From: Cyanidioschyzon merolae
Taxonomy: Eukaryota
Reading direction: 5' to 3' (one strand)
Assembly: GCA_000091205.1 (NCBI GenBank)
Contig: AP006487.2
Length of the DNA: 64,000 nt
In this document: piece by piece, positions 1,191 to 60,740 of the stretch
Numbering within the stretch: position 1 is the first letter of the stretch
Layout: each line of letters starts with the position of its first letter
Position numbers and translations under genes: made by a program
Notes under the pieces: model-generated
The model's input: the letters and a program-made list of their open reading frames with translations, nothing else
Database searches by the model: none
What the model was told of the DNA's origin: nothing

Positions 1191-2517
1191 GGTGGAAAAT
1201 CGCCGCACTTGAACTAGGACCTTTTTTCAATTGTATTCCAATGTTCACAGGAGCTCACGAGCTAGCTGTCGAGAAAGAGAGATGCCCATTCTGGCTACTA
1301 TCATAGCTTTTGCGTTCCGTAAGCTGATAAACGTACCGTTTTTGTACTATAGACCGAGATCAGTTTTTAGAAATATCTGCTATTGGCGCGGAGCGCATCT
1401 ACTTGTTTCTTTCAGTGTTCCTCAACTATCTGCGTACTGCGGTATACCTGACCAGTAAGACGAGTACAGCCCGCCTTGCACCGTTCAGTACAGTATGTAT
1501 ACCCTACACGCAATTCGTTTACGAAATTTACGGCCTACTGGATACTGATTTCTGTTTCTTTCTCTTTTCTGTCAAATAGCATTCTGTTACACTCAGCTCG
1601 GGTGGAACAAAATTAAGCTAATACCTATGAAGAAACATACTCCGCGGACTCAACTCTTTTCTGTGTTGTTTACGTGGAAAAGTCTATTGGATGCAGACTT
1701 GAGTCATCCGGGGGATATCGTTAAGTGGTGAGCGGGTCAGCGTTTTGCACGAGGGGAGCGTTGACGGATCGCGATTTCTCGTATTGATATCTTACCTGGG
1801 GGTTCCGTACAGTACTTTATCGCATTCCACAAATATTCTATCGAATGCAACAACGAGCACTTGCACTTGTGGCGAACAGAGTGCTCTCCGAAGCGGTCGA
1901 TGAAAAGAAACATGGTCTTAAGATACGTCGCCAGGCGCGAATACGGAGGAATGCACAAGTGGGACCTTCCTGTACATGTTGAGAGTATGTTTTGAGCAAT
2001 GAAGTTCACGTTCACGAATTGAGGTATGAGACGCAGAGGAGTTAGTGTGGGGTTTGTAAGGCACTATAGCATCACGGCTACGTGTCACAGCAATGAAAAG
2101 TGCATCTCTGGTATATGCGCAGAAGATGAATAACGCGAAGCACTCGTTGGTCGCATGGCCTGCATGAGCATGAATTCCCTGGCGAATAGTCGGAAGCAGC
2201 GAAATCGGGAGTTTAACGCTGCCATCAACGTTCTCAGACAGCTGACAAGAGAGCTGGAGGTACAATAGAGACCGGCGTATTCGAAACAAGAAATATGAGA
2301 GAAGAAAAGGAAGCGGTCGCACGAAGTACCCGTCAGGCCACTGTGTATAACAGTGAGAAGGAAGCCAAAGCAAAGAGGTAACACCTACGGTAGGGAACCT
2401 GTCCGATTTTTATCTGACATGATGTAAATTACGCCACAGTTCCAACAAATTTTTAGTATCTCTGCTCGACTTTAGGATACGGGTTTTCGAAAAGTTTTTA
2501 GAAAACCTTTACTTTTA

Positions 2518-10769: not shown

Positions 10770-12974
10770 TCTATGGAGGATCTTTGCGTTGTACGAGTCT
10801 AGACAGGAATGTAGTACAACTCGTGTATCGAATATCGCCATTTCATGCCGGTTGTCGGCTGCTGCAAATGTCCTGTGCAACCTCATCAGCTCGGCATGCC
10901 CCCGGAAGTCGTACATGGCTGGCACGCTTTCGCTCCTCGACAAGGTGATTTTGTTCTTCGGGAAAACGCATCTCAGTGAGAGTGGCTGAACTGGTGTTTT
11001 TGGAGCTCGAAACAGACGCAGCCTGGAAAGGTCTTGCTGCTGGTGGGCTTGGGCTGCCCCGTGTTCAGGCGCCGGCAACAGTTCGTTGCGGTCCAAGCGG
11101 CAGACTCATCAGTTGTGCTTGACTGCCGGACTTTAGCAGCTCTGGCCACTATGGCCGGACTCACAAAGGGTGGATCTGATCAAAGATCATAGTCAAGGCG
11201 AACGCTTTTGCGAGCCAACCTGTTAACAGTTCCAAGGCCTGAACAGAGCGGCGCTCTGCACGGAGTTCGTCTGCAGATGCGGGCATTCGACTCACTGCGC
11301 TTACTTAGGTCTTGTTTAAAACTATTGAACGTGAGGAGAACATGAAATGCGAGACTCGCTTGGCAAGAGAGGATGCAGAAGCGTACTACTGCCCGATACC
11401 ACGCACAGGAGCCATCGAGGAAACGAACATGGTCCTAGCAACCGCTGCAAGCACTTACATTCATATCGGAGTCAAATGAAAACGGCCTGCTTTGCTGACC
11501 TGGGCGTCAAGTTAGAGTCATTTCCAACTGTCACCGAAACCTGGCTATGTGAACGTTTTGGGACGCAGCCCTTTTCATCTCTATTAATTCTGGTTTAAGA
11601 TACGCTAGTCTCCCCCGTCCCTCCCGCTTTGTTATAAGCGGTCGAAATTTGAGGTTGGCAGTATTCAAGTCTCGATTTCGCAGTTTCCCGCTTCTGTCGA
11701 CGCATTGATGCACATGCGAAAGTTGCGATCTACGCATCTCTTGCTAATTGCATCTTCTTTGTATACAGTCTCGCTGCGTTTTCGCAGCCGTGACATTTGA
11801 TTGCGATCAGATGGTCCGATGTGCTACTCACATTTCCTTCATCGAGTGCCGCAGCATGGCGCGAGAAGGCTTCCTTCATCGCTCAGTACATGGCTTTGAC
11901 GAGCGCAGAAGTATTCCCGCGTTGCACTCCTCCGATTCCGCGGCCGGTACGGTATCCTTCGATCACGGTTTCTTCTGAGCTATCCTTTCAGTGATAAACC
12001 TGTCCGCTGCACACGCAAGCGCACGCTGGTCAGTTCGATCGGGGATTTATCTAACGCGTGGCTGTGTATGATGGAACAAGTTCCTACAGAAACATCTCGG
12101 CTGGAGAGCAGCTCGAGAAAATTCGGTCCGTCTTCGCTGCCCTCCTGCGTAGCGGCGACGCACTCTCCGTGGGAATCGATAGCTGCAATGCCTGAAGTCG
12201 GAGTCCAAGATCATTATCCATGGATACAGAGACGACGCGAGCCTCTGCATCCATGTTCTGTTCGAGGGATCATGCTGCCATCGATTAACTCTTCGTCAAT
12301 GGCCGCAAGGAGAGGAAATTTTGCCTCCCGAGAGAAAAAGAGATCATCTGAAGTGACGTTTTCAGTGAACTTCCGACATAGGATTGTGAAGAAGGCCTTT
12401 GGGGCTATTGTCGAGCATGATTCCTCTTCAATCCAGCGGCGCACGCTGCGGCGCCCGGGAGTCGCCTTGGAACAGAAAGATCGAAAACTTGAAGACCGCA
12501 TGATTCGCGCATGCCACAAGTGAGGAAAACAGAATCGTGGATGCTTGAAAGTACAAATCGGGTAACTGTATCGGAAGCTTTACGAGCCATTAGTCGAAGG
12601 TGCTACGAATCACCTTGATTCCTGTGACATACCGAAATCCAGAGGCAGAGCGCCGATGGAGCGCCTCCGAGCCTACGACCAAGAATCCTACGAATACGTA
12701 TGAATCCGTGCCCCCTCATTGCTGGCCGTCGAATGTCGGGGCTATTCACTTACCAAAATTTTGGGAAAACGATCAAAAGGCAGGTGCAGTGCGATTAGTA
12801 TTGTGTTCCACAGTGATATGAAACCGGTTCGGAATGAGGAGCACGTGCTCGCGCAGTCTGGATCCCCGGATCGAAAGACGGCTTGATGCAGGTGATGACG
12901 CCTTTCGCCTCAATCGTGTTCCACAATCAGATGCGTGTAACCACATGGGTTTTCGCGTTGTATGGCAGATGGGT

Positions 12975-25147: not shown

Positions 25148-26389
25148 GAACAACTCACGAGCGCAAACCAGCTTCCCCGGAAGCGATCTTCCATTTCTGT
25201 GGAGAGGAACTCGGTAGTCTGTTGCTGTCGCCGCTGCTGCAGGCCGCCCAGGGCAGGCAAGAGGGGAAAGAACGAACATGGAAGCAGCGGGGCGTCGGTA
25301 CTGTCTACTAGAATGCCTCAGCTCGGGAGACGCCTTCCTTCCACCACGAGCGACTTATTGGACCAGTCAACGACTTTGGCCTATGCGTGGCACAGATTGC
25401 TTGTCTGAAAATCCTCTCACGAATACCCTGACACACGAAACTTCGCTTTGGAAAGAGTGGTATGACCAAACACATTGCGAGAAACATTTTATGTCCGTCC
25501 GCAGTTCGGCGGCGATGACTACACCCATATCAGATTAAAATATGACGGGTCCCCGCGCGCAGGCGTGTCTGCTGAAGCTTCAGTTTGTTATGCGCGTCAC
25601 AAACAGCTGCATTCGACGGCTTTTTCTGTGCCTGATGCCTTTTACCCGTCACCTCAGCGGCTTTAAATATGCCAGACTCCTTTCAGATCCGTTGTCAGCA
25701 AGCGAAGGAGTTGATGGCAGCGTGAAAGTCTCGATTTCGCTGCTTCCGGCTGTTGTCGACGCATCTCATGTATAGCTAGTGTTTGCGATCCACGCTTCGC
25801 TTATGATGCTCATGTACTTTGTATACAACCTCGTTGCGTTCGTCGTAGTAGAGGCACTTGGTTGTGGTTGTCTAATCCCCTAGGTATACCACATCTCGTT
25901 CTCTGAGGTCCGTCGTGTGACGCATGCACGCATGCTGCATCGCTCGACATATGCCTGTCACCGGTGCATCGGAAGGCTGGCCACGACATCATCCTTCGTT
26001 CCCGTGACAGGCACCGTACTCTAGAACCATGTTCTTCTTCTCGGACACGCCTTGGCGAGTACTCCGCCCACCGCAAACTCGAGTGCACGCTTTCCCATTC
26101 GATCAAAGGCTCGGTCAACGGGATTTTGCAGTCGATGAATCAAACACCGCAAGGAAAATCTAGCTTGGAGATCAAGTCGTGAACTCTGGATCCATCGACT
26201 CGCACATCGTGGAAAGCTGTGGCGTTCTTTGCAATGGAATCGATCCCTGCGATGACTTAGTCCCGACTCCAAGGCTCTTTTCTGTATAAACAGAAGCATC
26301 GGGAGCCTCTGGAAGCATACTGCGTTGCAGCAATCACGATGCTGCTGTCGAATCTTATTTTATGGATAACCAGGAAGAGAGAAGAACTT

Positions 26390-26810
26390 ATCTTTCGAAC
26401 GTCAACGGTACTTGATTGACGTGAAAATTTCTGTTAGCTTCCGGTATGCGCTTGTGAAGAATTTGCCAGGGGAAGATTTCGAGTAGTTTTGTTCATCGAT
26501 CCAACGAAGCGAGGTGCCGCGTACAGGCGTTGCCAAGAAGCACGAAGATCGTGAACATGAAGAATGCGTGATTTGAGCATGGTACACGTAAAGAACGGAG
26601 ACTAATAGATGCTTGTACTTACTTATGGAACGGATACTGTTATCGGTTAGTTTCCAAAACTATTTTTTACGGCATGAAAAAATCATCTGGGTTCCGGGCA
26701 TGTTACGATTTGCACCCGCTGGGAGTCGAAAGAGCCATTTTGAGAAGACGACCCAGAATCCTAAAAGTACTTATGAATGCGTAAGCCGTTTTGATGCACT
26801 TATAATATAG
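26390..26810 (+). repeat. Second dispersed short-repeat family (other copies ≈12230–12730, 39180–39560, 44800–45200, 49640–49930)
   Basis: Shared blocks 'CTTTCGAATGGAAT…', 'GAAGAATGCGTGATTTGAGC…', 'GAGCGTCGCGAATCATCTT…GTGAC…AAGAATCCT…ATGAATGC.TAAGC'. Copies are 70–85% similar and fragmentary. Confidence 0.5.
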
Positions 26811-27185
26811 AGGTATTACAAGAAAGTTCCGACAAAGAAAAGAAACGCAGGAACCAGGTAATCAGTTCAGTGATCCATTTTAAACTGACACGAGTGTACG
26901 GACCCTCTCGGTGCAGTACTTACTGCTTGCGCTTGCTGCGAAGCATTATACGCCAAACACATCGGTTTCCCTATAGATACAGAAAGAACTTGTCATAAAC
27001 GTTCTGCATTCGGTTCGAATGTGGTTTTACTGAGACGGAGCCGGGTCTCATCGTCATCATGGAATTCGGCAGGCTGCTTGCATGGCAGCTTTGCCATAAG
27101 CGGTGTGGAACCTTGAAGGCGCACGTAGTGCTGCATCTTTTTATCGAGTAGTCGTGCTCACGGGAGCAAGCCTTGCTTGTAACCC

Positions 27186-29799: not shown

Positions 29800-31211
29800 T
29801 GATGCAGTGTAGAGTACAGACTATAGACGAGCTGCCTGGTGGATCTGTTCTTCACTGAAAAGTGCATGGAGGTCTGCATTCCTCCTTCAGCTCAGTTATG
29901 CAACAGGACTCAGATGGCTGAGGAACTCTGAAACAACCAAGAATACGCGCTCCGCGCCAAAAGCCGATATTCTCGAAGACTGGATGCGGTCAATGGTAGA
30001 AAACCACCCGTTGATCACCTGTTCTGGAAGGAAATAGCGACGATAGTAGCCACCATGGGCGACTCTGTTTCCCACCAGCTTGTTCGTGTGGTGCTGAAAA
30101 CTCTAGGGTACAGTCGCTAAAGAGAGTCCGGGTCCACGCATGGCCATCTTCCACCGGCACCAAAATGGCAGCGTTCCTGGAACTCAGCGATCAGTATGAC
30201 GTCCACGGACGTCGGTTTGTTTTTTCCCAGTCGATGCGGCTTCCTTCGGACGAGGCGGTCGGTGCGTTTATGGGTATCCTCGGAGATGGCGTCTGTGCTA
30301 TGTACGAACGAACTTGTAGAGAACGAGCATGTCATCAACTGTTCGAGCTGCAGTGGATTCTTTTGGCGGCCTCAGTTTCGCTCATAGACAAGACACATAC
30401 AAGAGCAGCAACGAATTCGTCGAATCACTGAAGACGGTTCTCTGACGTCTTCTGACAACCCTCTGTTGGACAACGTGACATTTCACGATTCTTCTTGCGT
30501 TCGAGTCTCTGCAGATTCTGTTGGAATAGAGCCGCTTTTCATTCCTCCGTACGCGCCGTAGTTTAACGCCATCGAAGAAGTCTTTCTTATCGTCGAACGT
30601 GGTGATCGCTCCACTGGGCGAACCGCTGAAGCTTTGAGCATATGCTGACACAGGAGCATACTCCTTCGTTGTTTTTCAAATCCTTCTGCCATCGGGAAGG
30701 TCCTCAACTGAGCTCAAAAAACAAGTGCGTTCATTTTAAAAAATAAATAATCCAAGGAACAGTTATGGACATTGAAGTCGAGGATTCTAGAGGCCTGGTG
30801 TCGCCAGGTTCGAAAAAGAAACGAAAAATCCTCTTCTCGCCGACCATCGAGCGAAGGACAGCATATGCTGAAAAAAAAGAGAAAATGAGGTGAGATAGGC
30901 GAGAAAAAGTGTATACCCGACGGGACGATGACGAGACTGTAGTGGCACAGAGGGCGCGAGTTCGAGGACTCCTTGCACAAATGAGCTCCACCAGCTGCAG
31001 TAAATGCTTGGAGTCCGTGAACCGAGATTATAAGGCTGGCACCACTATCAGACGATGTCTGGTGCTATAGACGAGACCCGCGGAGCTGACGCGAGCCAAA
31101 TTTGTGGCGCAGCCTCGTAGGGTCAAGGTATACAAGTAGACGCTGACGCCGACAGTAGGGAGCGGGTCCAAAATGTCTGGAAAGCGTCTACGAATGGATA
31201 TGTACATATCT
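29800..31211 (+). mobile_element. Composite decayed repeat, copy 5
   Basis: ~97% identical to copy 7 over ~780 bp (29850–30645 vs 58530–59320). 'PVDHLFWKEIATIVATMGDSVSHQLVRVVLKTLGYSR' (HTH_Tnp_Tc3/IS630-like). 'GIEPLFIPPYAP*FNAIEEVF' (DDE C-terminal motif with a stop). Tail unit from 30716 with 'MDIEVEDSRGLVSPGSKKKRK' and a degenerate RuvC-III region. Confidence 0.6.
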
Positions 31212-34320: not shown

Positions 34321-35070
34321 ACCGGGACCCAAACAGTACCGAAGAAATCCCGTTTGGGTAAGGTGAGAAAGCGCAAGTCGAGATCATCGGTGACCAAGTC
34401 ATAACCCGAAAATGGTTTTATTACGCGCTACCCGAAGCCTTTACATTCAAAAGTTACAAAGCGTCTCATATATTTCTTTCCTTTTCGGTCCTTGAAGCCT
34501 TCCGGGGGAATCATTCCAAACCATCAAGTATTGTTACAAAATTGTTGTCTCTGTTTCATAGCGAGTTTTTCCATACGCGTTTTCCAGTGATTTCGAAGAC
34601 TACTTTGTCTGCGTTATGCACAGACAAACCTGAGCTGGCCTACTCATAGCGAAACTACAGAATGTGCGGAAGAAAGCCGCCGTCCGGTCGCTCTGCAGCG
34701 AGTCGATGCACTAAGTTCGTCTCTTGTGTACATCGGCCCCAGTGCACATCTCTCTGAGTGGTATATCAAGACATGCCACATCGTTTCGCTCTTGTCAACG
34801 AAAATGAGGATGAGTATGCGTGGCAGAGAATGCGAAAGTGTGCAGTGACACAATCGCTGGGCTAAAGCATGCTGGCAATGAACGTGTTGTAAATCTTCTA
34901 TTTCTGCGAAAAATCATCGACGACATGCAAATCGAAGTTCACCGCGTGCATCGACGACACCGTCGTTGAGGCCGACTTCGAGAGTCACGCCGATACCTGC
35001 ATGCAGAGCGGCTCATCCGAGGAGCGCGTTTCCTCACACATGGAGGCGCGTGATAGTGCTCCAACTGCAT

Positions 35071-35964
35071 CTAGTATGCCATCATTGAGGCTGACGGCGA
35101 CGGCGACGGCGACGGCGACAGCGAGGCTGACATATGCACACGTATCACGTCCGCGTCCGCCAGCGCATCTACCACGTTCAGACGCATATGGTGGCTCCCC
35201 GAGTGCATCGACGACATCATCATCGACGGCGACGGCGAGGCCGACATGTGCACACGAAGCAGCTCATCCGCCACAAGTGCATCATCTAGGCTCAGGCGCA
35301 TGTGGTGGCTCCCCGAGTGCATCGACGACATCATCATCGACGGCGACGGCGAGGCCGACATGTGCACACGAAGCAGCTCATCCGCCACAAGTGCATCATC
35401 TAGGCTCAGGCGCATGTGATGGTTCCCCGAGTGCATCGACGACATCATCATCGACGGCGACGGCGAGGCCGACATGTGCACACGAAGCAGCTCATCCGCC
35501 ACAAGTGCATCGTCTAGGCTCAGGCGCATGTGGTGGCTCCCCGAGTGCATCGACGACATCATCATCGACGGCGACGGCGAGGCCGACATGTGCACACGAA
35601 GCAGCTCATCCGCCACAAGTGCATCGTCTAGGCTCAGGCGCATGTGGTGGCTCCCCGAGTGCATCGACGACATCATCATCGACGGCGACGGCGAGGCCGA
35701 CATGTGCACACGAAGCAGATCATCCGCCACAAGTGCATCGTCAAGGCTCAGACGTGAGCCATATAAACCATACGACGAAGAAGTTGTTGTCGTTGTGGTT
35801 GTTGGCGAGGCCGACGGCGACGGTGAAGGCGACGGTGAAGGTACTAAGATCGGATGCAAGACGGTGCGGTCCTGATTTATCCACAACGGCAGAGCAAGCA
35901 CGTTGCAACTGCAGAGAACAGTGCAGATCACGAACACACAGATGATATTCTTTGCAATCGACAT
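35071..35964 (-). CDS. Putative secreted Ser/Met/His-rich tandem-repeat protein
   Basis: Signal-peptide-like start 'MSIAKNIICVFVICTVLCSCNVLA'. It is followed by about 5.5 copies of a 38-aa unit 'HMRLSLDDALVADELLRVHMSASPSPSMMMSSMHSGSH' encoded by the 114-bp tandem array. ORFs are open on the opposite strand too (a low-complexity effect), so the strand call rests on the signal peptide. Confidence 0.4.
   Translation of the reverse strand: MSIAKNIICVFVICTVLCSCNVLALPLWINQDRTVLHPILVPSPSPSPSPSASPTTTTTTTSSSYGLYGSRLSLDDALVADDLLRVHMSASPSPSMMMSSMHSGSHHMRLSLDDALVADELLRVHMSASPSPSMMMSSMHSGSHHMRLSLDDALVADELLRVHMSASPSPSMMMSSMHSGNHHMRLSLDDALVADELLRVHMSASPSPSMMMSSMHSGSHHMRLSLDDALVADELLRVHMSASPSPSMMMSSMHSGSHHMRLNVVDALADADVIRVHMSASLSPSPSPSPSASMMAY
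35128..35760. repeat. 114-bp tandem repeat array (~5.5 units)
   Basis: Units start at 35190, 35304, 35418, 35532 and 35646, near-identical. Preceded by (GACGGC)n at ~35095–35130. Confidence 0.9.
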
Positions 35965-38309: not shown

Positions 38310-38910
38310 AGTCACAATAAAACGGGAGGGGGCCTGTTCGATATCTCGAGCGAACACGCTCAAGTAGGGTTTCCTTCCCACTTGCGCCAAGACCAGTCCT
38401 CACAGGCTCTATCTGTGACTGCCTCTGTTTCCTCTCTCTTATCTCCTGCTGTAAACACGCGAGTCGTTCATGCCCCTCCAGCTCCGTAGTCAGCAGTCGA
38501 AGGGTGTTGATATTCGCGTTAATGTCCGGATCTGGGAGCTTCCCGCCGCTGACGACGCATTTCAAGCGCAGGCGGGAGGGACGATCTTCGCCTCACTTGT
38601 CTTCCGCAGCGTCTTTGCATGCATGCTTGACGCGCCCAGCGCAACGGTGGCAGTTGACTGCGGTCAGGTGCTCCCACATGACCACCATAACGCGTCCAGA
38701 TCAGAGCGCCGCATGTAACTTTTGAACGCTTGCTTCCTGGCTCGATACATGCGATAGACGGGTCCACGTGGGCTCCACTGCATGCCCTCATTCGTTGCGA
38801 TGCTCGGTGTCGTCCCAGAAGATCACGGGCATCTGCTGGGCGATCTCCTGGACGTGTACTCTGTTAGCTGTGCACGCAAGCCCACGCTGCTCCAGTCGAT
38901 ACGGGATTTG
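38310..38910. repeat. 601-bp dispersed/direct repeat, copy A (upstream of Spo11)
   Basis: ~98% identical to 43959–44559 with identical boundaries ('AGTCACAATAAAACGGG…CGATACGGGATTTG'). Not TG…CA-terminated. Confidence 0.9.
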
Positions 38911-40593
38911 AGAAGCGCAACAATGTCCATGAATAATCAAGGGCCAAAAGAGTTATCCAAGGTAAACAACGAGCCGGGAAATTCCGATTCGTCTACGCTA
39001 CCTTTTTCCAATTCGTTGACGCACGCTCCACTGGAACCGTCCGCTGAGGTGAATCCGCCTCGAGTCCAAAACCCGTTCCGATGCAAACACAAGAAGCGGA
39101 AGCCTCTGGGTGTAAATTCAAGGGCTTCATCATACTACCGCGGAGTATGGTTGCGCCTACGGCTGTTAAGAAATGAGAATTTGTCTTTCGAATGGAATAG
39201 ATGAGATAACGTGGGAGCATCGGTAACCTTTGGCATGGGGCGTAGAAGAAGTCGTCAAGGGAACAAGCAGACAATATCCGTCGTCAGCCTAGCAGCGCGA
39301 ATTTCGGCGCTCATGAGTTGCCATGAAGCAGCAAGATCGAAACCTTTGAGACGTTCTATTTGAGAATGCTGTGCGTAATGAACGGGGAAGATCGACGGTC
39401 TGAGATTATCATGTGGAAAATGAAAACGGTTACTGCACGAACCCTTATTCAAGAGCGTCGCAAATCATCTTGACTCCGGTGACGAATCGAACTCTAGTGA
39501 CCACAATCTGAAGGAGTTACGAAGAAAGGACCACCCGAAATCCTCAAACGACTTACGCATCCATTACTTCTCATGACTGCGCTAGGAACATTAAGTCTGG
39601 AAATCGAAGCAGAAGGTCGGAAAATACTTCGAAAGGCATGAATAAGGCGGGCAGCTTGGTACACCATTTTAATCCTAAACTGGTGGTAAGCATTCAAAAT
39701 TGTAAATAGAACTGCACTTTTGAGTGCCATTTCTTGGAAATGGTACTGGAAGGAAGAACTGTTAATACATGAAGCTTCATCACAAGACTGCTTGAACAAC
39801 CTTTGCGGGCCGTTTCCGATGCTGAAAAGACGCGACGGTCCCGCTCTAAAGATAAACCAACGTCATGGATGGCGTGAAGTCGACCTTGAATCTATGGTCT
39901 CTGTGCGCGGTCGAGACGACCGTCTCGTGGCAATGCAGACTAGGTATCTATCCGAATTACATGTTTTCAAAAGAAAGAGCACGGAGCTTTCCATAGAATT
40001 TCCAGAACGCTTTTTTTGAAAAACTACAAAAAACCATTTTCCCAGCACGGGAGCATTTACAAACAGAGTCCGGGCTCGATTACGCTAGCCTGTTGACGCA
40101 CATCTGCACAAGTGAAACGCTGTAGCGTTTTCCATACACTGGTGCGTTATTTTGTAACACAAAGTCTTTTACTCACTGCTGACGCGATCATAAATTCTTG
40201 GAATTATATCACGTAAGGTCTGGCATCTCACAATACCAAAACATATTTAGTCTTGTCGCGCAGCTCCGCAGCATCAAGCTCGAGTCCGCATGGCGCTCTG
40301 GAATAAGTTCTCTTGAACGTTTGCTTGCTCTTGAAGTCAGTGCAACTCTTAGGCTGAAGCGCGTTCCAAGAGGGAATTTATGGTGGCTGCATACATGCAC
40401 GTAAAGGATCCTGATTCATGGCTCGATCAAGGGCATCATTATGCCCAGCGGGCATCACTGGCGCCACTGGCGGGAGCGACACGCTGATGCGTGTAGGTTG
40501 ATTTCGGAGCACGCATATGGCAGTCCATACGTGCGAGCGGCGCGCTGAGCTGCTCTTAATCTTCTCGCGTGTTGCTGGTATCGACGAAGACAC

Positions 40594-41679
40594 ATGGACA
40601 GGTCGCCTCTAGAGAAAATAGAAGGGCTTGCACTCCGGATACTAAGCAATTTAGATATAGTGGGTTTGTCTAAAGAATGGGCAGCTGCTGTCCGCATATT
40701 GTGTGTCTTGCACCGGATCAGATGCATAGAATGGCAGCAGTATGGACCGTTTGCCGTATGTAACCAGGGAAGTTTTACCTTTCGTGACCTTTTTTACCTC
40801 AGCAAATCTGACGAGGTCCTTAATCCTCTTGGTGCAGGGACAAGCGCTGCTTATGCTTCTTCCCCATTTCGGGAGAAACTCTCAGTTCGAAGCACCCGCC
40901 GCGGCCTGATGCTGCTCGAAAAAGTCTTTCAAGAACCAGAGTTGCGGTACCAGCTGGGTGCGCTTCCTATGCCGAAGGGCATTCTATGGGCGCCGTCAGG
41001 ATTCGTTTTACAATGGAGCCCAAACAGGGATGTCCACCATGAACTCGAACTCAGTAGCGTCGTTCCGGTGCCGCCAGAACTTGGTAGAGCGAGTACAACC
41101 TTTCGCTTACGGCTCCACGAAGCGCACTTTGGGAACCCGAATTTTGGAGCAAAGCTCCGAGCAGTGTTGGTCGTGGAGAAGGAAACAACTTTTCGAGCAC
41201 TGCTGAGGGGCATCCATGATCCCCCTGGTAAGTTTCTTCGCTACGCGCAGCTAAATAGAGTAGCAATGATTAGCGGCAAGGGTTACCCAGACCGGGCCAC
41301 AAAGGTGCTCGTGCGGTATCTCGCAAAGACGGAGGGAATTCCGGTTTTCCTGTTGACCGATTGTGATCCGAACGGTATCGCGATTGCGCTCCAGTACGAT
41401 GGTGCAACAGAACGCATCGGCGTTCCTCTTCATGGCCCCGAAAACGCTGGCTTTGCAGCACTTCGTCTACTTGTTGATCATGACCACAGTCTGTTGAAAC
41501 AGCTCCAACGTCGAATCACTTGCATGGACGGCATTGGAGCCAGCCTGCAGCCGCCACTAGCATGGATGGCTGCGACGGGATACAAAAGCGAAATCGAAAG
41601 TTTGAGCAATCCCGACCTCACTGAATTCGTCATCCGTGCACTCAAGCAAAGACTCAAAGTGTACTCTGTGCACAAATGA
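40594..41679 (+). CDS. SPO11: Spo11 / topoisomerase VI subunit A-like meiotic DSB protein, 361 aa
   Basis: Catalytic-tyrosine motif 'FRDLFYLSKSDE' (Spo11 'RDIFY'); TOPRIM glutamate 'VLVVEKETTFRALL' and DxD 'LLTDCDPNGIAIAL'. Confidence 0.85.
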   Translation: MDRSPLEKIEGLALRILSNLDIVGLSKEWAAAVRILCVLHRIRCIEWQQYGPFAVCNQGSFTFRDLFYLSKSDEVLNPLGAGTSAAYASSPFREKLSVRSTRRGLMLLEKVFQEPELRYQLGALPMPKGILWAPSGFVLQWSPNRDVHHELELSSVVPVPPELGRASTTFRLRLHEAHFGNPNFGAKLRAVLVVEKETTFRALLRGIHDPPGKFLRYAQLNRVAMISGKGYPDRATKVLVRYLAKTEGIPVFLLTDCDPNGIAIALQYDGATERIGVPLHGPENAGFAALRLLVDHDHSLLKQLQRRITCMDGIGASLQPPLAWMAATGYKSEIESLSNPDLTEFVIRALKQRLKVYSVHK

Positions 41680-41752
41680 CTGGCTTCAGCAAGACCCAAA
41701 TGCCCCTTGCGGAATTCGAAATCCGTGCGCGCATTTGAAGAACAATCAAACG

Positions 41753-43489
41753 CTAATTTGCGGACGGGTGATAAGCTTCAGCAAGACACAAAAGTCTTTC
41801 AGCTGCTGTCGCCAATTCTTGCCGCGACCAAGGATCGTGCGGCAGATTCGGCAGGCAAGCACGACACCAGAGTTGCAATGCCCAAGAATGGATATCGGCT
41901 CCGGTGCTGCGAGACTGTTCCAGCCTCGTCCTGCAATGCAGAAAATGCACGAAACTTTTCCCTTGATCATCGTGTCTCTCACCGTGAGCTGCATACCGTC
42001 GAATTTCGCGTGGAAATGGATGCGGTAGCATTAGGACCGTCTTTGATTCAGAAGTAAAACTGCTTTTTTGATTCAAAAGCTCATCTATGGAGGCGGTGTC
42101 CAAGGCACGGCAAAAGTTGCTGAGAGCCTCTGGTAAGGTAGACTCATCATTCGCAATAGGATGCTTGACGAAGCCAGGCAGCCGTTGTTTCAGTCGCATA
42201 CACCATCCCTTATCGACGAATTGCCGGAGCCAGCCTGCCGTGGATAGATTGCAAAGATCGAAGTTCTGCGTCGGTACGTCATTGCTCCCGGCAGAGTTCC
42301 TAAACAGCGAAAATGGTGAAAATCCGGCCCGCAAATCGAATATGCAACGATGGCGAAGGCCCAAAAGGTTACCGCTCATTGCGACTCGAAGCCTATGCTC
42401 CAGCGGATGGGCGTCCAATATTCTATTCACAGCTAGCGCGGTGGCAACACTCGCAGTCCAGCCAAACGAATTACAAGTAAGATCCTCGAAAGACAGGCCC
42501 CGTGCATCTAGCGTCCACAGCCGTTCGCGTTGCGTATTCCGCAGATTCCTCGCACGAACAGGCAAGTATGCGATGTGATCATTTTCCCCCGAAGCACTCG
42601 ACGTGTACAAGCTGCTAACAAGTAGCGCCTCTCCAATTTGCCCCACATTGACATCCAGCTTCGGATCAATGGAAAAGATAAAAAAATTCTTTTTCGTGCC
42701 GAAAAGATCCGAAAGTTCTTCAACGAGCCCTGATAATACACCACCATTCCCTGCGTGCTCCAGGGACCCATGGATGTCAAATCCCGTGAGAGAATCACAG
42801 GTTTCCGCGAAATAACGTACTGCATCCAGGAGCTCTTCGGATTGTTTTTTGCTTTGCACGGCATCGTAGCCCCTTTGAAATAACTCTAGGTCGCGAACAA
42901 ACTGGTTCGATAATGGTGTGTCTGCGATATCGGGAATTCTGGTTTCAGCAAACGTGGTCGAGGATGCCTTTGTAGACTCCAGATCGTGCAGCAGAGTCTG
43001 AGTTCGAATTTTTGACCGACTACTCAGGGGGAACGCTTGGAAGTCTGTCCAGTGCCGTACACTTTCCTCGAAATTATACGCGTCCGGTGATTTCACCGTT
43101 CCGGCCTGTCGATCAACCTGAAAAGCATGCCTTCTGTCATGTTGGCTGGAAGAGAGGCGTTCAGTCGGACCCTTCCATAACGTCTTCGAAATTGGATCTT
43201 CGTGCGGTTCGAGTGCCCTGCTGATAGGAGCTTCACTGCAATCAAGTGAACAGTGATCCAGTGCAACAAGTCTCGGCACGACTTGGCCAGCAGTAGGTCC
43301 TTCATCTGGCTCCCAGAAAAACTCCCGACGCGCTGCCCAAAACCTTTCCTCGACAGACGAGAGACATTCGTGAGAAACCCCACCACTCGAGACCAGAGTG
43401 CTATTGTAATATAAGAGGTTCCAAAAGTGTGACCCGCAGTAGCTTGCAGCTTCTCCCAGCTGTACTACAACAGAGTTTTTCTCTACCAT
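41753..43489 (-). CDS. Misato/DML1-family tubulin-like protein, 578 aa
   Basis: N-terminus 'VVVQLGEAASYCGSHFWNLLY' matches the Misato segment-II/tubulin-like motif ('EIITLQLGQ…NxxGxHFWN'). Size fits the family. Convergent with Spo11, with stops 73 bp apart. Confidence 0.7.
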   Translation of the reverse strand: MVEKNSVVVQLGEAASYCGSHFWNLLYYNSTLVSSGGVSHECLSSVEERFWAARREFFWEPDEGPTAGQVVPRLVALDHCSLDCSEAPISRALEPHEDPISKTLWKGPTERLSSSQHDRRHAFQVDRQAGTVKSPDAYNFEESVRHWTDFQAFPLSSRSKIRTQTLLHDLESTKASSTTFAETRIPDIADTPLSNQFVRDLELFQRGYDAVQSKKQSEELLDAVRYFAETCDSLTGFDIHGSLEHAGNGGVLSGLVEELSDLFGTKKNFFIFSIDPKLDVNVGQIGEALLVSSLYTSSASGENDHIAYLPVRARNLRNTQRERLWTLDARGLSFEDLTCNSFGWTASVATALAVNRILDAHPLEHRLRVAMSGNLLGLRHRCIFDLRAGFSPFSLFRNSAGSNDVPTQNFDLCNLSTAGWLRQFVDKGWCMRLKQRLPGFVKHPIANDESTLPEALSNFCRALDTASIDELLNQKSSFTSESKTVLMLPHPFPREIRRYAAHGERHDDQGKSFVHFLHCRTRLEQSRSTGADIHSWALQLWCRACLPNLPHDPWSRQELATAAERLLCLAEAYHPSAN

Positions 43490-43958
43490 ATGATCACCTG
43501 TCGGCCCCGCTCAGGCGCCCGAAAAGCAAGCAGAATAGACTGAAAAACTTGGTTCTCCAAAACTGAAGCGACTCCGAACTCACCTGACTTACCCGTTGGA
43601 GTGATTTATTTCTTACGCGGCAGCACGTCTCGCAGGGCTGGTAACGCACTCGCTCATAGTCGCTAAGGCGGTCTCTGCCGGTCGCTGGTACCTGAGGTGC
43701 GCTCACAAACCAACAGCTGCACTGCAGCGAGGACGCACTATTTGAGAACGGTAACAACGAGCAGGACTGCGGCCCGTGCGGAAGAGTTCGTTAGAAACCG
43801 TAAAAAAGAAAAAGTTTCCCTACCAGCACGTAAGAATGAAAAAATTTCGTACAGGAAAATGCTTGGGCTCCAAATCAACGCCGGCATTTCCGCGAAGAAA
43901 CAAGACAGCGAACATGTTGCCGCCGTTCTATTCATGGGATTGCCGCATGCTCCGCCAA

Positions 43959-44559
43959 AGTCACAATAAAACGGGAGGGGGCCTGTTCGATATCTCGAGC
44001 GAACACGCTCAAGTAGGGTTTCCTTCCCACTTGCGCCAAGACCAGTCCTCACAGGCTCTATCTGTGACTGCCTCCGTTTCCTCTCTCTTATCTCCTGCTG
44101 TAAACACGCGAGTCGTTCATGCCCCTCCAGCTCCGTAGTCAGCAGTCGAAGGGTGTTGATATTCGCGTTAATGTCCGGATCTGGGAGCTTCCCGCCGCTG
44201 ACGACGCATTTCAAGCGCAGGCGGGAGTGACGATCTTCGCCTCACTTGTCTTCCGCAGCGTCTTTGCACGCATGCTTGACGCGCCCAGCGCAACGGTGGC
44301 AGTTGACTGCGGTCAGGTGCTCCCACATGGCCACCATAACGCGTCCAGATCAGAGCGCCGTATGTAACTCTTGAACGCTTGCTTCCTGGCTCGATACATG
44401 CGATAGACGGGTCCACTTGGGCTCCACTGCATGCCCTCATCCGTTGCGATGCTCGGTGTCGTCCCAGAAGATCACGGGCATCTGCTGGGCGATCTCCTGG
44501 ACGTGTGCTCTGTTAGCTGTGCACGCAAGCCCACGCTGCTCCAGTCGATACGGGATTTG
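43959..44559. repeat. 601-bp dispersed/direct repeat, copy B (downstream of Misato)
   Basis: Direct-orientation partner of 38310–38910. The two flank 5,048 bp containing Spo11 and Misato. Confidence 0.9.
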
Positions 44560-45399
44560 TGCAATGCGATGTTTTATATGACGAGACACAGAACGATGGG
44601 GGAATTCATGCTGAAGAACAAGTCGAGAAGCTTCAAACGGTTGACGTTCCGCTCTTGCGAAACGGTGAGGCAATCTTCGTTGGAGACAATCGCTGCGATT
44701 GCTAAAGTCCGGGCCCATGACCCTTCTCTAAGAAAATAGAAGAGACATGAGCACCTGGGCGCATGTCCCGTGAGAAGTATCAGGCTGCTGTCGAACGGCG
44801 TTTTGCCGATGACGATAAACAGATGGCGATTCGTCTTTCGAATGGAATCAATCATTTGGTTTCATACGTTCAGTGAACTTTCGGCTTGAGCTTGTGAAAA
44901 AGTCGTAAAGGGACTACATCGAGGATTCTTTTCGATTCAATCCACCTGCGATAATTGCTGCGCCAGTGAGTCGTTTTGAAACAAAAAAATGGAACTATGA
45001 AGAATGCGAGGTTTGAGCTTGTGAACCGTAAAGAAGGGAGCGGAGTGGAGGATTGTTTGTATAAACCTGATGACGAGATCTGCAATTTTATCAGTGCATG
45101 TTCGATTGCGTTGCAAATCAATTTTATTCCGGGGACCTAACGCTTTCCTACGGCAAAGCGTCGAAGCAGCTACTCCGCAGAGAAAACCGGGAATCCTTAA
45201 CCTAGGTTTGGATCCGTGAGCCGTTGTTGTCGCACTTCCAATGTGGAGTTTTTCGATCTAAAAAAATTCGGGAGAGAATTGTAGAGCAGGAATCGGTAAG
45301 CAGTACAGTTTTCCATTCTACGATTCTTTGAACTCAATTTTGTTTCAACCCCGCTGAGTGTAATAGGATTCTATTTCATCGTAAAGAGCAGGATATCGA

Positions 45400-46800
45400 A
45401 ATTAATATGCAATGTACCCTTTAGACATCAGTCGAATTGCCTGCCGAATATATTCTTTACTGTACAGTGCAAAGAAGACTGCATTCCTCCTTGAGGTGAG
45501 CCATAGAACATTACTCACATGGTTGAGGAACTCTGAAAGAAAAAAGTACATGAGGTCCGTATCAAAACCTAATATTCTCGAAGACTGCTTGCCGGCATTT
45601 GTATAAAACGACCCGTCTATCACCTGACGGAAAGCAGAAGCGGCGATAGCAGCTTCCAAGGCTGTCTCTGCCTCTCTATTGTTTGCTGTTCTGGTCCTGA
45701 AAACACTGGGACACAGTCGCAAAAAGAGAGTCCTAGTTCACGCATGGCCATATCCCGCTGAAATCGCAACGACAATGAACCTGACACTTCTCGATCCGCA
45801 TAAAGCACAGGAGTGTCGGATTGTTTTTTGATTCGGTCCGCCTCTTTTGGACGAAATAGTCGGAGCGTGAATGTGTATTCGCGGAGCAGGAGCACGTTGC
45901 ACGTAAGATCGAGCTCGAAGAGAACGACGACATCATCTGTTCTAGGTTTAGTGGATACACTTGGCGACCTCAGTGTCGCTCGTAGACGAGGCTCATACAA
46001 CAGCTCCAACCAACTTGTCGAATGATTGAAGACTTTTCCCTGACAGCTGGCGACTTTGTTCTGTTTCGTCACGTGCCATTTGCAAATTCTTTTTGCGTTC
46101 GAGTTTTTGGGGATTTTGTTGAAGAAGTGCTGCTTTTCATTCCCTCGTTCGCCCCGAGGTTGAGCCCAATCGAAGGCGTGTTTTCTATCGTGAAACGTAA
46201 TGATCGCCCCACAGGACAAATCGCTGAAGCGTTCGGCACACAGTGACACATCGGGGCACATATCGTCTTTCTTCTGCAAGTGCTTCGCACTCCGAGAAGG
46301 CCCTCACTTGGGGTCATAAACAAGTGCATTAATATTGAAGTAATGCATAATCCAAGCGAGAGCTATGGACATAGAGGTCAAGGATCGTCGAGGCCTGATG
46401 TCGCCAGACTCGACAAATGAAACGAAAAAATCCTTGTCTCGCGAACCAATCAGTGAAGAAGAGCAAGTGACGAAGAAGAAGAGGAGGAAAGGTTGTCAAG
46501 TAATGTCGTCTGTCTGAGTGCGAGATCACGGGACTGCAGTAGCACAGCGAGCACCAGTTCGAGGACTACTCTCATTGGTAAGGTCCAGCTGTGGCAATAA
46601 ATACATGGAGTTCTTGAGCCGAGACTTTAACGCCGCCATCAATATCAGACGGCGTGCGGTGCTCAAGAAGAGACTCGAGGAGCGGACACAATCCGACTTT
46701 GGGGGACAACCTCTGATTCTAGATGTGTACAGGGAGAAGCTGGAACCGATATCGAGCGCCCTGCCGAAATTGGCTGAGAGGCTTCTGTGAGTCTTTATCA
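45400..46800 (+). mobile_element. Composite decayed repeat, copy 6
   Basis: 'MYPLDISRIACRIYSLLYSAKKTAFLLEVSHRTLLTWLRNSERKK' (HTH-like). 'FVEEVLLFIPSFAPRLSPIEGVFSIVKRNDRPTG' (DDE_3 C-terminus). Tail 'MDIEVKDRRGLMSPDSTNETKK…KKKRRK' plus 'NKYMEFLSRDFNAAINIRRRAVLKKRLEE…GGQPLILDV'. Confidence 0.6.
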
Positions 46801-47246
46801 ATACACCCTCGATAGTTGTAGGTCATTTTTCGTTTCTTTGCCTGTGTGTATGATGTGCATGTGTATCGTGAGCCGACGCCCTCCGTCGCACGGCAAAACC
46901 GTTCTGTCTCCGTGCGACGACCGCACCGGCGCTACAGGCGCTATCGCGGACGCTACCGGCAGGCATTCAGCAGATAATGGAACCTACGGAACGACAAGTA
47001 TACCCGGGAAGAAGTATCAGTTATGGAATTTGAAGGTAGGTGCAGAACGATAGGTGCTTCGCCGCGCGCTGATAGCGAGCGCACAGTCGCGGAAAGCCGG
47101 CCTGCGTCAACAATTTGTCAAGTACGAAAATCCCTGCCGCAGACGCTGCGGCGCGCGCACAGTGTAGGTATTCCGTCCCGCGCCGCTAACTCTAGTTAGT
47201 TCATGCTGTGCGTTGGACGAACCCGGACCAAGTATACAATAGAGTA

Positions 47247-49094: not shown

Positions 49095-49640
49095 ATCGCT
49101 TGGTACAAGCCCCTGACCGGCGCAGAGGGCTTTCCTGAATGCATCCTGCAGTTTCCGTCCTTGGCGCTTTACACTGAAACTACGGGCGTCTTCTGGGCAA
49201 AACCCTCTGTGAGAATGCTGCTCGGTGCAAGCGCAAGCGCACGCTGTTCGATGCGACAGAGAATTTCCGGAACATGGTGCTGTTCATGATGGGACAATCA
49301 CCAGAAGCACAATCCGCGCCGGAAAACGAGTCGAAAAACCTCGATCAGTCTCTGCCGCCATTCTCAAAAGCAGTGGCGCGCTTCCGACTGGAGGCGTTTG
49401 CTGAGATGACAAGAGTCCGAGTACGAGACCTTTTTCCATACGGGCCGAAGAGATGGAAGCCTCTAGCAGTAGATCCCGTAAGGGATATTTTGCTGGTGCG
49501 GAATCCCGTTCCGCCCGCAGCCATCCATAGATGAGAAATAATGCTTCGAGCGGAATCGATCATCTGATCGGAAAGGATCAGTGAACTTTCCGCAAGAGTC
49601 TGTAAACAAGTCGTCAAAGGATGATGCTGAGTTTTTCTCG
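49095..49640. repeat. ~540-bp segmental duplicate (partner 60207–60740)
   Basis: ~97% identity. Carries an 86-aa ORF in both copies; all 5 differences are non-synonymous. Confidence 0.85.
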
Positions 49641-58479: not shown

Positions 58480-59798
58480 AATGAACCGAACAGATCGTAG
58501 AGGGATTACCTGCAGGAATATACTCGTGAAGGAACAGTGCATGGAGGTCTGCATTCCTCCTTCAGGTCAGTTATGCAACAGGACTCAGATGGCTGAGGAA
58601 CTCTGTAAGAACCAAGAATACGCGCTCCGCGCCAAAAGCCGATATTCTCGAAGACTGGATGCGGTCAATGGTAGAAAGCTACCCGTTGATCACCTGTTCT
58701 GGAAGGAAATAGCGACGATAGTAGCCACCATGGGCGACTCTGTTTCCCACCAGCTTGTTCGTGTGGTGCTGAAAACTCTAGGGTACAGTCGCTAAAGAGA
58801 GTCCGGGTCCACGCATGGGCATCTTCCACCGGCACCAAAATGGCAGCGTTCCTGGAACTCAGCGATCAGTATGACGTCCACGGACGTCGGTTTGTTTTTT
58901 TTCCAGTCGATGCGGCTTCCTTCGGACGAGGCGGTCGGTGCGTTTATGGGTATCCTCGGAGATGGCGTCTGTGCTGTGTACGAACGAACTTGTAGAGAAC
59001 GAGCATGTCATCAACTGTTCGAGCTGCAGTGGATTCTTTTGGCGGCCTCAGTTTCGCTCATAGACAAGACACATACAAGAGCAGCAACGAATTCGTCGAA
59101 TCACTGAAGACGGTTCTCTGACGTCTTCTGACAACCTTCCGTTGGACAACGTGACATTTCACGATTCTTCTTGCGTTCGAGTCTCTGCAGATTCTGTTGG
59201 AATAGAGCCGCTTTTCATTCCTCCGTACGCGCCGTAGTTTAACGCCATCGAAGAAGTCTTTCTTATCGTCGAACGTGGTGATCGCTCCACTGGGCGAACC
59301 GCTGAAGCGTTCAGCACACCGGGACGCCCGGGTACGCCTCGTCGCTCTTCCGCAAGTCCACCTCTGTCCGGAGACGTCCTTACGTCAAGGCGTAAAAAAG
59401 TGCGTCCATTTAAAGCAATAAAAAATCTGACGGCTGAGCTGGGGTGTACACTTCAGAGGGTCGAGACGGAGATAAGCCAGCGGAGCGCTTCGGCAACAGA
59501 TATGCACGGCGAGCTGACAGAGCACCGGGTAGCATAGAGGGCACGGGTTCGATCACTCCTTGCATGGCTGCGTTCCGTCAGAGGCGATAAACGCATGGGG
59601 TTCGTGAACCGAGAATGCAACGCCGCCAACAATATGAGGCGATGTGTGGCGCTGAAGACGAGACCCGAGGAGATGAAGCGATCCAGCTTCATGGGGCGTC
59701 CTCGAAGCCTCCAGGTATCCAAGGAGAGGATGAAACGCATGGCAGGGGGCCGGTCGAAAAGGCTGTGGTGCGTCTACCAGTTGGTATTCATTAACCCT
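58480..59798 (+). mobile_element. Composite decayed repeat, copy 7
   Basis: Near-identical to copy 5 in the Tc1-like part. Tail 'KRMGFVNRECNAANNMRRCVALKTRPEE…'. Ends 'GGTATTCATTAACCC' (59783–59797). Confidence 0.6.
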
Positions 59799-60206: not shown

Positions 60207-60740
60207 TCGTCGCTTGGTACAAGCCCCTGACCGGCGCAGAGGGCTTTCCTGAATGCATCCTGCAGTTTCCGTCCTTGGCGCTTTACACTGAAACTACGGG
60301 CGTCTTCTGGGCAAAACCCTCTGTGAGAATGCTGCTCGGTGCAAGCGCAAGCGCACGCTGTTCGATGCGACAGAGAATTTCCGGAACATGGTGATGTTCA
60401 TGATGGAACAATCACCAGAAGCAAAATCCGCGCCGGAAAACGAGTCGAAAAACCTCGATCAGTCTCTGCCGTCATTCTCAAAAGCAGTGGCGCGCTTCCG
60501 ACTGGAGGCGTTTGCTGAGATGACAAGAGTCCGAGTACGAGACCTTTTTCCATACGGGCCGAAGAGATGGAATCCTCTAGCAGTAGATCCCGTAAGGGAT
60601 ATTTTGCTGGTGCGGAATCCCGTTCCGCCCGCAGCCATCCATAGATGAGAAATAATGCTTCGAGCGGAATCGATCATCTGATCGGAAAGGATCAGTGAAC
60701 TTTCCGCAAGAGTCTGTAAACAAGTCGTCAAAGGATGATG
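60207..60740. repeat. ~540-bp segmental duplicate (partner 49095–49640)
   Basis: See the partner entry. Lies ~400 bp downstream of composite repeat copy 7. Confidence 0.85.

Follow-up and report, generated by a model that had tools for sequence, protein, structure and literature searches.

Near-identical 601-bp patches in two dead transposon copies on either side of a Spo11–Misato gene pair in Cyanidioschyzon merolae

Known systems and the repeat pair

Cyanidioschyzon merolae is haploid and famously transposon-poor. Ectopic (non-allelic) gene conversion between transposon copies or paralogues is known for yeast Ty and for mammalian Alu and L1. Chimeric Fanzor elements were described by Bao and Jurka (2013, PMC3627910). 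They reported that, in C. merolae, CMe-1A shares its 5′ 635 bp at 95% identity with TE-N2_CMe, a short element in its own right, and they found no TIR or TSD for CMe-1A (PMC3627910). The same study presented Tc1/mariner elements with Fanzor1 (PUl-1 and PGv-1), in which a DDE transposase is followed by Fanzor on the same strand. Homologous recombination in C. merolae is efficient enough to make gene targeting routine (PMC3764038).

The DNA analysed here (the window, 64,000 nucleotides) is from the finished chromosome 5 of C. merolae 10D. Self-BLAST of the window showed that copy A (38310..38910) and copy B (43959..44559) match at 592/601 positions without gaps (98.5%, E = 0). The copies are in direct orientation, and their starts are 5649 bp apart. 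This agrees with the sequence-only reading, which had described near-identical direct 601-bp repeats with the same boundaries 5 kb apart. The nine differences are spread along the patch. At both ends, the identity fell from about 98% to about 50% inside one 50-bp step, for which the baseline is the 47% at which random 300-bp pairs from the window align. In being direct, about 600 bp long, 98.5% identical, and 5 kb apart, the pair resembles the low-copy repeats of NAHR, and this layout is shared by every strain sampled.

The two copies were said to enclose exactly two genes, one of the Spo11 family and one Misato-like, and they do, with stop codons 73 bp apart (41680–41752). The ORF at 40594..41679 (+) is identical to BAM79299.1, annotated as "similar to DNA topoisomerase VI subunit A". 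It matched Pfam TOP6A-Spo11_Toprim (PF21180) at 2.6e-17, its PDB matches were Topo VI-A and yeast SPO11, and it has 42.7% identity to its Cyanidiococcus orthologue. It carries the Toprim DxD motif "LTDCDPNG" and "TFRDLFYLS", which we take to be the catalytic tyrosine motif from its likeness to yeast "RDIFY". The ORF is a member of the Spo11/topoisomerase VI-A family, and it may be meiotic Spo11 or a Topo VI-A paralogue. The Misato-like gene of the tubulin superfamily (41753..43489, −) showed weak matches to Tubulin_3 (1.8e-6) and Misat_Tub_SegII (1.5e-4), both under the curated cut-offs. It is 41% identical to a Cyanidiococcus orthologue named Misato Segment II. Fer2 and Misato are minus-strand genes to the left of the patches.

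Comparison of the locus among strains and relatives, which had been proposed as a check, showed that every sampled strain keeps the full arrangement. In Cyanidiococcus, the synteny UAP56-Misato-Spo11-Fer2 is kept, and no sequence of family X, family Y (both described below), or CMe-1A was found in 21.8 kb of the locus. Since the outgroup lacks the elements, their insertions are lineage-specific, and since it keeps the pair adjacent with no such elements nearby, the bracketing of Spo11 and Misato is incidental.

Two direct repeats of LTR-like length around a 5-kb interior recall the layout of an LTR retrotransposon, but each of its tested defining features fails. The repeat ends are AGTCAC...GATTTG rather than TG..CA, there is no TSD, and the repeat runs on into diverged homologous sequence. 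The interior consists of two conserved cellular genes in ancestral synteny (Spo11-like and Misato-like, not gag-pol). An LTR retrotransposon and a composite transposon were rejected on termini, TSD, and internal genes. Collapse or mis-joining of the assembly, which had been named as grounds for dismissing the repeats, was also rejected. The reference chromosome is finished, and independent metagenome and Logan contigs from other strains (98.7–99.5% identity) span all four repeat junctions or stop exactly at the repeat edges. It is thus extremely improbable that the locus is an LTR-like or composite transposon that captured Spo11 and Misato, or a misassembly of the reference.

Family X and its Fanzor-like remnants

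The 601-bp patch forms the 3′ third of the 1.36-kb unit of a dispersed family, here called X. Seven copies of X lie in the window and stay in register over about 1.36 kb (nhmmer). The patches are the 3′-terminal thirds of the relics X_A (38310..39670, −) and X_B (43959..45318, −). The suggestion that the repeats are parts of a larger repeated module therefore holds. The approximately 270 bp behind each copy had been taken for unique sequence, but family X continues there in diverged form (about 54%); X_B beyond position 44559 has only about 54% identity to X_A. Further copies lie at 11496..12828 (−; 54–61% identical to other X copies) and 25601..26896 (−). A truncated copy in the opposite orientation (1600..2366, +) is followed by the family Y relic Y1 (150–1524), and the remaining two (48711–50031 and 59870–60745) hold a second patch. 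Apart from A/B and the second patch pair, X pairs are 47–61% alike where both copies are present. Translated comparison (tblastx) between diverged X copies favoured no frame, which argues that they are decaying neutrally.

On its minus strand, X reads as a transposase-like remnant followed by the C-terminal approximately 170 codons of a Fanzor/TnpB-like nuclease. The minus strand of the X consensus gave a sub-threshold match to Pfam DDE_3 (E 0.0033). The protein P0001 matched the consensus (tblastn, E 2e-14; motifs MAVGETRF, FIMYIIAFHKS, and EYSPRGSP). The transposase part is visible only in the consensus, and X_A and X_B individually gave no significant transposase match.

The repeats had been described as carrying no recognisable domain. 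This is incorrect for the minus strand, where a Fanzor/TnpB-type C-terminal pseudogene is detectable. In copy A it lies at 38407..38922 (−; tblastn of P0136 aa 357–524, E 3.5e-10, one frame), and in copy B at 44056..44565 (−; P0136 aa 359–524, E 2.7e-10). The actual copies align to P0135/P0136 at E about 1e-10, and the intact relatives of the X lineage are P0135–P0137. In copy A, what is left of a CxxC zinc ribbon reads "VNCHRC", the degenerate RuvC-III motif reads "PDPDINANINTL", and the frame is broken by three stops. The same three stops and the degenerate RD motif are common to both copies, and each copy aligns in a single frame to intact Fanzor-like proteins. On account of the degenerate motif and the stops, the Fanzor-like parts of A and B are pseudogenes. 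Pfam searches of the raw ORFs of the repeat found nothing, and the Fanzor identity of the patch came only from the family consensus and intact metagenomic homologues. The consensus "TTVKCHRCEGRI...CMKCV...RNRDFNAAINTL" (zinc finger, then RD/RuvC-III) matches PF07282 at E 1.2e-4. The best reading of these matches is that family X would be an IS630/Tc1-mariner-like DDE transposase combined with a truncated Fanzor (eukaryotic TnpB-like) gene.

Such a gene order would be like that of PUl-1 and PGv-1. L019 is an intact instance of a DDE transposase followed by Fanzor on one strand, and X and Y would be degenerate forms of this arrangement, with internal deletions. Unlike in PUl-1 and PGv-1, no TA TSD or TIRs were findable for X or Y. 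No TIR or TSD was found at the patch ends, and no inverted repeats of at least 40 nt were found across 36–47 kb. The full X ends are too decayed to judge.

The locus also resembles CMe-1A/TE-N2_CMe (PMC3627910). Both cases are from the same genome and involve old, degenerate Fanzor elements with no recognisable TIRs or TSDs, and in both a terminal segment of about 600 bp is highly identical between otherwise different elements. In contrast to that case, X has no nucleotide similarity to either element and belongs to a different Fanzor lineage, and the patch has two copies instead of about 70. The 3169-bp CMe-1A consensus matched 17 places in the window, none of them in 38310–39670 or 43959–45318 (nhmmer). 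TE-N2_CMe/CMe-1A was rejected as the identity of the 601-bp repeat, there being no BLAST match between the X consensus and CMe-1A. Family Y, with seven copies in the 64-kb window, carries an internally deleted CMe-1 Fanzor. The relic Y5 (45387..46794, +) lies head-to-head with X_B; in it, a Fanzor1 of the CMe-1 type with an internal deletion follows a DDE_3 transposase pseudogene. The left end of X and the right end of Y were considered as long terminal inverted repeats and rejected, as they showed no more than a 26-bp match at the NRDFNAAIN motif.

Selection could in principle have kept the patches alike, for example as a shared upstream regulatory element of Fer2 and Misato or as an RNA. Both copies have the same orientation: one lies upstream of the Fer2 ORF, by about 130–260 bp according to which start codon is used, and the other lies upstream of Misato by 470 bp. 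However, Rfam and tRNA scans gave no matches, the differences are not clustered, and the outgroup lacks both elements. The patch is only 52–61% like the corresponding segment of the five other X copies, so that there is no family-wide constraint. We regard selection as highly improbable.

Origin of the near-identical patches

Two other patches of this kind were found in the window. The second (49096..49626) is 531 bp long, lies inside two other X copies, and is 99.1% identical to its partner at 60210..60740; the relics sharing it are 11 kb apart. The third (29857..30640) is 785 bp long and 98.2% identical to 58532..59316, inside two Y copies that are otherwise 58–69% alike and 28.7 kb apart. 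The edges of these patches are equally abrupt, and no patches of intermediate identity were found in the window.

The A/B patch is probably the product of local, in-register templated repair (ectopic gene conversion) between dead X copies 5.6 kb apart. X_A and X_B would have inserted independently, in the Cyanidioschyzon lineage, into the spacers flanking the ancestrally adjacent Spo11 and Misato. Much later, one X copy may have served as the repair template for the other. The replacement would have been non-reciprocal and in register, by ectopic gene conversion or microhomology-guided template switching, and would have run inward for 601 bp from the end of family homology. The same process may lie behind the two other patches between nearby relics.

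The identity of A and B is 98–99% over the patch and 53–54% to its right, and both stay in register with family X across the inner edge, which suggests that homology guided the replacement. The outer edge lies no more than about 10–15 nt from where family homology ends. The three stops and the degenerate RD motif shared by both copies show that the copied sequence was already dead. As in ectopic conversion, there is a pair-specific block of near-identity in diverged copies, in register, with sharp edges and no insertion signatures, between close partners on one chromosome. Unlike in ectopic conversion, the A/B flanks are about 54% identical, far under the canonical tolerance, and one edge coincides with the end of homology. 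These two features make microhomology-guided template switching more likely. At about 54% flank identity, canonical homologous recombination would be expected neither to begin nor to resolve, so that a microhomology-based mechanism must be assumed. The tree of family X is star-like and singles out neither a donor nor a direction of copying. No pre-conversion state of A or B was seen in any strain, and the outgroup Cyanidiococcus is without the elements.

The patch edges count against templated repair, as they would fit shuffling of modules before insertion equally well. Two chimeric non-autonomous elements with a shared Fanzor-derived terminal module and unrelated transposase modules would then have transposed separately, in trans, to both sides of Spo11-Misato. 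The patch coincides very nearly with the Fanzor-derived module: its outer edge falls at the end of the element, and its inner edge, at 38910, comes within 12 bp of 38922, where Fanzor homology starts. The chimeric Fanzor elements and the segment shared by CMe-1A and TE-N2_CMe provide a precedent (PMC3627910). But the partners are neighbours, 5.6 kb apart here and likewise close in the other two patches, which independent transposition would not give, and the second X patch crosses the module junction. A 24-mer from the patch occurs in no other context in metagenomes, the patch ends lack a TIR or TSD, and the flanking modules are heavily decayed. Shuffling before insertion is therefore unlikely, and templated repair is the reading that we prefer.

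Environmental strains already carry the A/B patch, at 98.7–99.4% identity. Five or six of the nine A/B differences are private to 10D or to its closest environmental relative, which suggests that the conversion and the split of the strains are of roughly the same age.

Recombination potential and relation to Spo11

The 601-bp repeat is without demonstrated function. All that follows from it is the potential for recombination between the copies to delete the 5.65-kb Spo11-Misato interval or turn it into a circle, and the earlier statement that the direct repeats are a substrate for ectopic recombination holds formally.

Several contigs have the shapes expected of such events. Contig L004 (MEGAHIT k141) consists of the repeat and the interval with an exact 141-nt end overlap, and L016/L018 are a circular permutation with a 123-nt overlap. 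In L014, the left flank, the repeat, and the right flank are joined without Spo11-Misato. The two 10D copies agree at site 391, where all environmental contigs except L016, from the closest relative of 10D, are different, and in one sample the A and B contexts appear to have traded bases at sites 372 and 483. If the events were real, these three independent metagenome contigs (L004, L016, and L014) would indicate a circle and a deletion allele. However, exactly these contig shapes arise when a direct repeat collapses in a de Bruijn graph, most assemblies just break at the repeat edges, and the evidence consists of assembled contigs. Misato is likely essential in a haploid, and every sampled strain keeps both genes between the repeats. 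A is identical to B in metagenome contigs of 12–14 kb, which was considered as concerted evolution. This identity was put down to artefactual collapse of the repeat, since at site 549 every A-context contig that reaches unique flank has A and every such B-context contig has G. It is very unlikely that A and B are an active substrate, with repeated exchange (concerted evolution) and a 5.65-kb extrachromosomal circle or deletion in natural populations. The full scenario, a live substrate producing the circle and the matching deletion allele while recurrent exchange keeps the copies near-identical, is equally hard to credit and quite improbable. In a bolder variant of it, a Fanzor nuclease still active elsewhere in the genome would make breaks at the element end and so trigger such terminal conversion patches.

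The 24-mer from the patch was found in four JGI metagenome contigs, all of them from this locus, and exact-protein look-ups of the repeat ORFs returned one contig or none, which was of no use for judging copy number. Judged by the 24-mer, the near-identical version appears to exist only as these two copies. The objection that the unit might simply be a multi-copy interspersed element not associated with the locus was thus right in part: the element is interspersed and unrelated to Spo11, but its near-identical version apparently has only two copies. The repeat has no specific tie to Spo11. The patch is the terminal third of a dispersed, dead transposon, two other relic pairs have patches of 98–99% identity, and the outgroup is without the elements.

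For Spo11 biology the repeats are of little import, and their bracketing is an accident of two transposon insertions beside a gene pair that the ancestor shared with Cyanidiococcus already had side by side. The window shows that relics about 55% alike swapped blocks of 0.5–0.8 kb at least three times in 64 kb, all at about the same age, while the mechanism and direction of the repair are what we infer from them. This is an unusual recombination substrate, and it may record a past bout of ectopic repair. Family X is a second Fanzor lineage beside the one reported for the C. merolae genome, and the "unclassified" CMe-1A Fanzor element is now linked to an IS630/Tc1-mariner-type transposase.

The repeat pair and the enclosed genes

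Self-comparison of the window showed that 38310–38910 (copy A) and 43959–44559 (copy B) are 98.5% identical over 601 bp, gap-free, in direct orientation and 5649 bp apart. The alignment has nine substitutions and abrupt edges: identity in 50-bp steps rises from ~50% to 94–100% and falls to ~54%. The 100–300 bp flanks reached 46–54% identity, compared with 47% for random window pairs. The interval contains a Spo11-like ORF (40594–41679, + strand) with a TopoVI-A/Spo11 Toprim domain (2.6e-17) and PDB matches to Topo VI-A and yeast SPO11. It also contains a Misato-like ORF (41753–43489, − strand) with weak Misato and tubulin matches under the Pfam cut-offs and PDB matches to tubulins. Their stop codons are separated by 73 bp. 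These self-comparison, ORF, Pfam and PDB results bear out the sequence-only reading of direct, near-identical 601-bp repeats around Spo11 and Misato. Exact protein look-up matched the Spo11-like ORF to BAM79299.1 (CME locus tags), named "similar to DNA topoisomerase VI subunit A".

That reading had allowed for a mis-joined assembly at this locus. The C. merolae 10D reference is a finished genome, and Logan, ENA and JGI contigs from related strains were collinear with the window and 98.7–99.5% identical to it. Several stopped exactly 30–141 nt inside the repeat, which is how k-mer assemblers break at true repeats, and others crossed each of the four repeat junctions. Misassembly is therefore excluded as the cause of the repeat.

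The order UAP56–Misato–Spo11–Fer2 is kept in Cyanidiococcus yangmingshanensis, where the Misato and Spo11-like genes converge with a 22-bp overlap in the annotation (L020:10001–13140, VWRR01000013.1). The Misato–UAP56 spacer is 389 bp there and 3.7 kb in C. merolae. No similarity to the repeat families X and Y, to the CMe-1A element, to transposases or to Fanzors was found in 21.8 kb of this syntenic region. The kept gene order and the missing elements indicate that the Spo11–Misato adjacency is ancestral and that the flanking elements inserted later, in the lineage of Cyanidioschyzon. No functional tie between these elements and Spo11 emerged. The annotated C. yangmingshanensis Spo11-like protein has 457 aa, and its N-terminus is probably over-extended, since homology to the C. 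merolae ORF begins only at residue 101.

Three metagenome contigs have the shapes of recombination products, namely a 5.65-kb circle and a Spo11–Misato deletion. Contig L004 (ERZ27247228 k141_637516, MEGAHIT k141) comprises the repeat and the interval, its two ends sharing an exact overlap of 141 nt, and L016/L018 (Ga0123519_10035952) is circularly permuted, with an overlap of 123 nt. L014 (Ga0080006_1177669) runs from the left flank through one repeat to the right flank, without the Spo11 and Misato genes. Real circles or deletions would be the sole high-interest reading of the repeat, if true. De Bruijn graphs and overlap-merging pipelines yield the same contig paths when a direct repeat collapses, and low coverage makes an isolated cycle in the assembly plausible. 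We therefore count these contigs as leads and not as evidence; they are probably assembly paths through the collapsed repeat, and the probability of real circles or deletions is low.

A 114-bp tandem repeat (~5.6 units, 87–95% alike) occupies 35110–35751, inside an ORF (35001–35945) coding for a Ser/Thr/Ala-rich protein. At this position metagenome contigs end or vary in length, and a 46-bp match to the unit is present in the outgroup.

Family X and the Fanzor-derived patch

When the window was searched with profiles of the repeat and of the sequence after it, the 601 bp proved to be the left third of a ~1.36-kb family, X. Its copies lie at 2366–1600 (− strand), 11496–12828, 25601–26896, 38310–39670 (X_A), 43959–45318 (X_B), 48711–50031 and 59870–60745. 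What had been taken for ~270 bp of unique sequence and a separate second repeat family after each copy is in both cases the diverged continuation of X. The copies are 47–61% identical pairwise in all segments present in both, with only two exceptions. One is A/B across the 601 bp, and the other is 49096–49626/60210–60740 (531 bp, 99.1%, direct) in the copies at 48.7 and 59.9 kb. Patches of intermediate identity were not found in X in the window. Three X copies are placed head-to-head with a Y copy.

The minus strand of the X consensus gives a weak match to DDE_3-like transposases (Pfam 0.0033; tblastn of the transposase query P0001, 2e-14), and after it come ~170 C-terminal residues of a Fanzor, "TTVKCHRCEGRI...CMKCV...RNRDFNAAINTL" (PF07282, 1.2e-4). 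At the nucleotide level X shows no similarity to CMe-1A, and its Fanzor remnant is of a different lineage from the C. merolae Fanzor1 protein CMe-1, with intact relatives of 376–551 aa in metagenomes. Residues 357–524 of one intact Fanzor-like protein, P0136, align in one frame to 38922–38407 (A) and 44565–44056 (B) with E ~3e-10. By this alignment, the patch consists of the Fanzor-derived module together with the 3′ terminus of a dead element. A and B share three in-frame stops and each has a degenerate "PDPDINANINTL" motif, so the patch was dead before copying took place.

Origin and age of the near-identity

A third patch pair lies in family Y, at 29857–30640 and 58532–59316 (785 bp, 98.2%, direct). 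Both A and B stay in register with X past the inner patch edge, and neither TIRs nor TSDs were found at the 601-bp patch. Near-identity over the 601 bp is specific to A/B among X copies, and only four JGI metagenome contigs contain a 24-mer taken from the patch, each of them derived from the A/B locus. The patch partners are neighbours, 5.6 kb (A/B), 11 kb and 28.7 kb apart. The simplest account is in-situ, non-reciprocal templated repair (ectopic gene conversion) between neighbouring relics, three times in the window. The start of the Fanzor-derived module is 12 bp away from the inner edge of the A/B patch, which keeps alive the alternative that elements exchanged modules before they inserted, as described for other Fanzor elements (Bao & Jurka 2013, PMC3627910). 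The second X patch ignores the Fanzor-module junction, and the closeness of the partners favours conversion in situ. Canonical homologous recombination is implausible at ~54% flanking identity, so such conversion would have proceeded by synthesis-dependent annealing or by microhomology-guided template switching. The point where homology runs out would fix one patch end, and a stretch with local conservation, "TTCGAT..GGATTT", the other.

The three patches differ within pairs by 1.8%, 1.5% and 0.9%, and 10D differs from environmental strains by 0.6–1.3%. The patches are similar in age, with divergences similar to that between strains, and the A/B patch is already present in all environmental strains compared. 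Nine sites distinguish A from B in 10D. At five or six of them the difference is confined to one 10D copy, or to 10D and L016, which is its nearest environmental relative; for the other three or four, both alleles occur among environmental contigs. A and B are identical within 12–14 kb contigs. At site 549, which lies 52 nt away from unique flanking sequence, every A-context contig has A and every B-context contig has G, yet the long contigs carry one state in both copies. We therefore rejected true identity there as a collapsed-repeat artefact. The state common to both 10D copies at site 391 is found elsewhere only in L016, and sites 372 and 483 seem exchanged between A and B contexts in one sample; these sites may hint at later A/B exchange.

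The repeat is real and well supported. As an object it is ordinary: two dead transposon copies that share a conversion-like patch. It is mildly unusual in the extreme divergence of the partners, in three similarly aged events within 64 kb and in the coincidence of the patch with a Fanzor module.

Family Y and transposase-linked Fanzors

Family Y has seven members in the window, mostly 62–69% alike (150–1524, 7150–8504, 12900–13469, 14524–15869, 29740–31214, 45387–46794 and 58495–59804). Its consensus encodes paired helix-turn-helix motifs and a DDE_3 transposase (Pfam 2e-13). The short tail matches the first ~26–55 and last ~90–115 residues of CMe-1 (aa 1–26/55 plus 612/640–728) and is thus a Fanzor with an internal deletion. 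Y pairs a DDE_3 (IS630/Tc1-mariner-like) transposase pseudogene with a downstream CMe-1 Fanzor1 that has lost its interior.

CMe-1A has a 3169-bp consensus, ~150 copies and no TIRs or TSDs, and was listed as "classification unknown"; TE-N2_CMe is its 635-bp derivative with ~70 copies (Bao & Jurka 2013, PMC3627910). The composition of Y suggests that CMe-1A belongs with mariner-type elements. Contig L019 (436–3634; ENA ERZ27257101 k141_342296) carries an intact 300-aa DDE_3 transposase and then an intact 702-aa Fanzor1 with 42% identity to CMe-1. The element ends in L019 may be marked by a perfect 14-nt inverted repeat (397–410/3809–3822). TE-N2_CMe-like copies of the CMe-1A 5′ 635 bp lie at 15876–16506 (−), 46865–47120 (−) and 26961–27079 (+). 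Two of the three are inverted directly after Y tails, a placement hinting that the 635-bp segment serves as an inverted terminus in the composite element.

Further transposase plus Fanzor1 relics lie at 21360–23731 (−) and 50286–53085 (+). The C. merolae genome is known for very few transposons. The 64-kb window holds at least 16 transposase/Fanzor relics, X and Y included, and the syntenic Cyanidiococcus region holds none. As by-products, the analysis links CMe-1A-type Fanzors to a DDE_3 transposase and adds a second lineage to the Fanzors of C. merolae.
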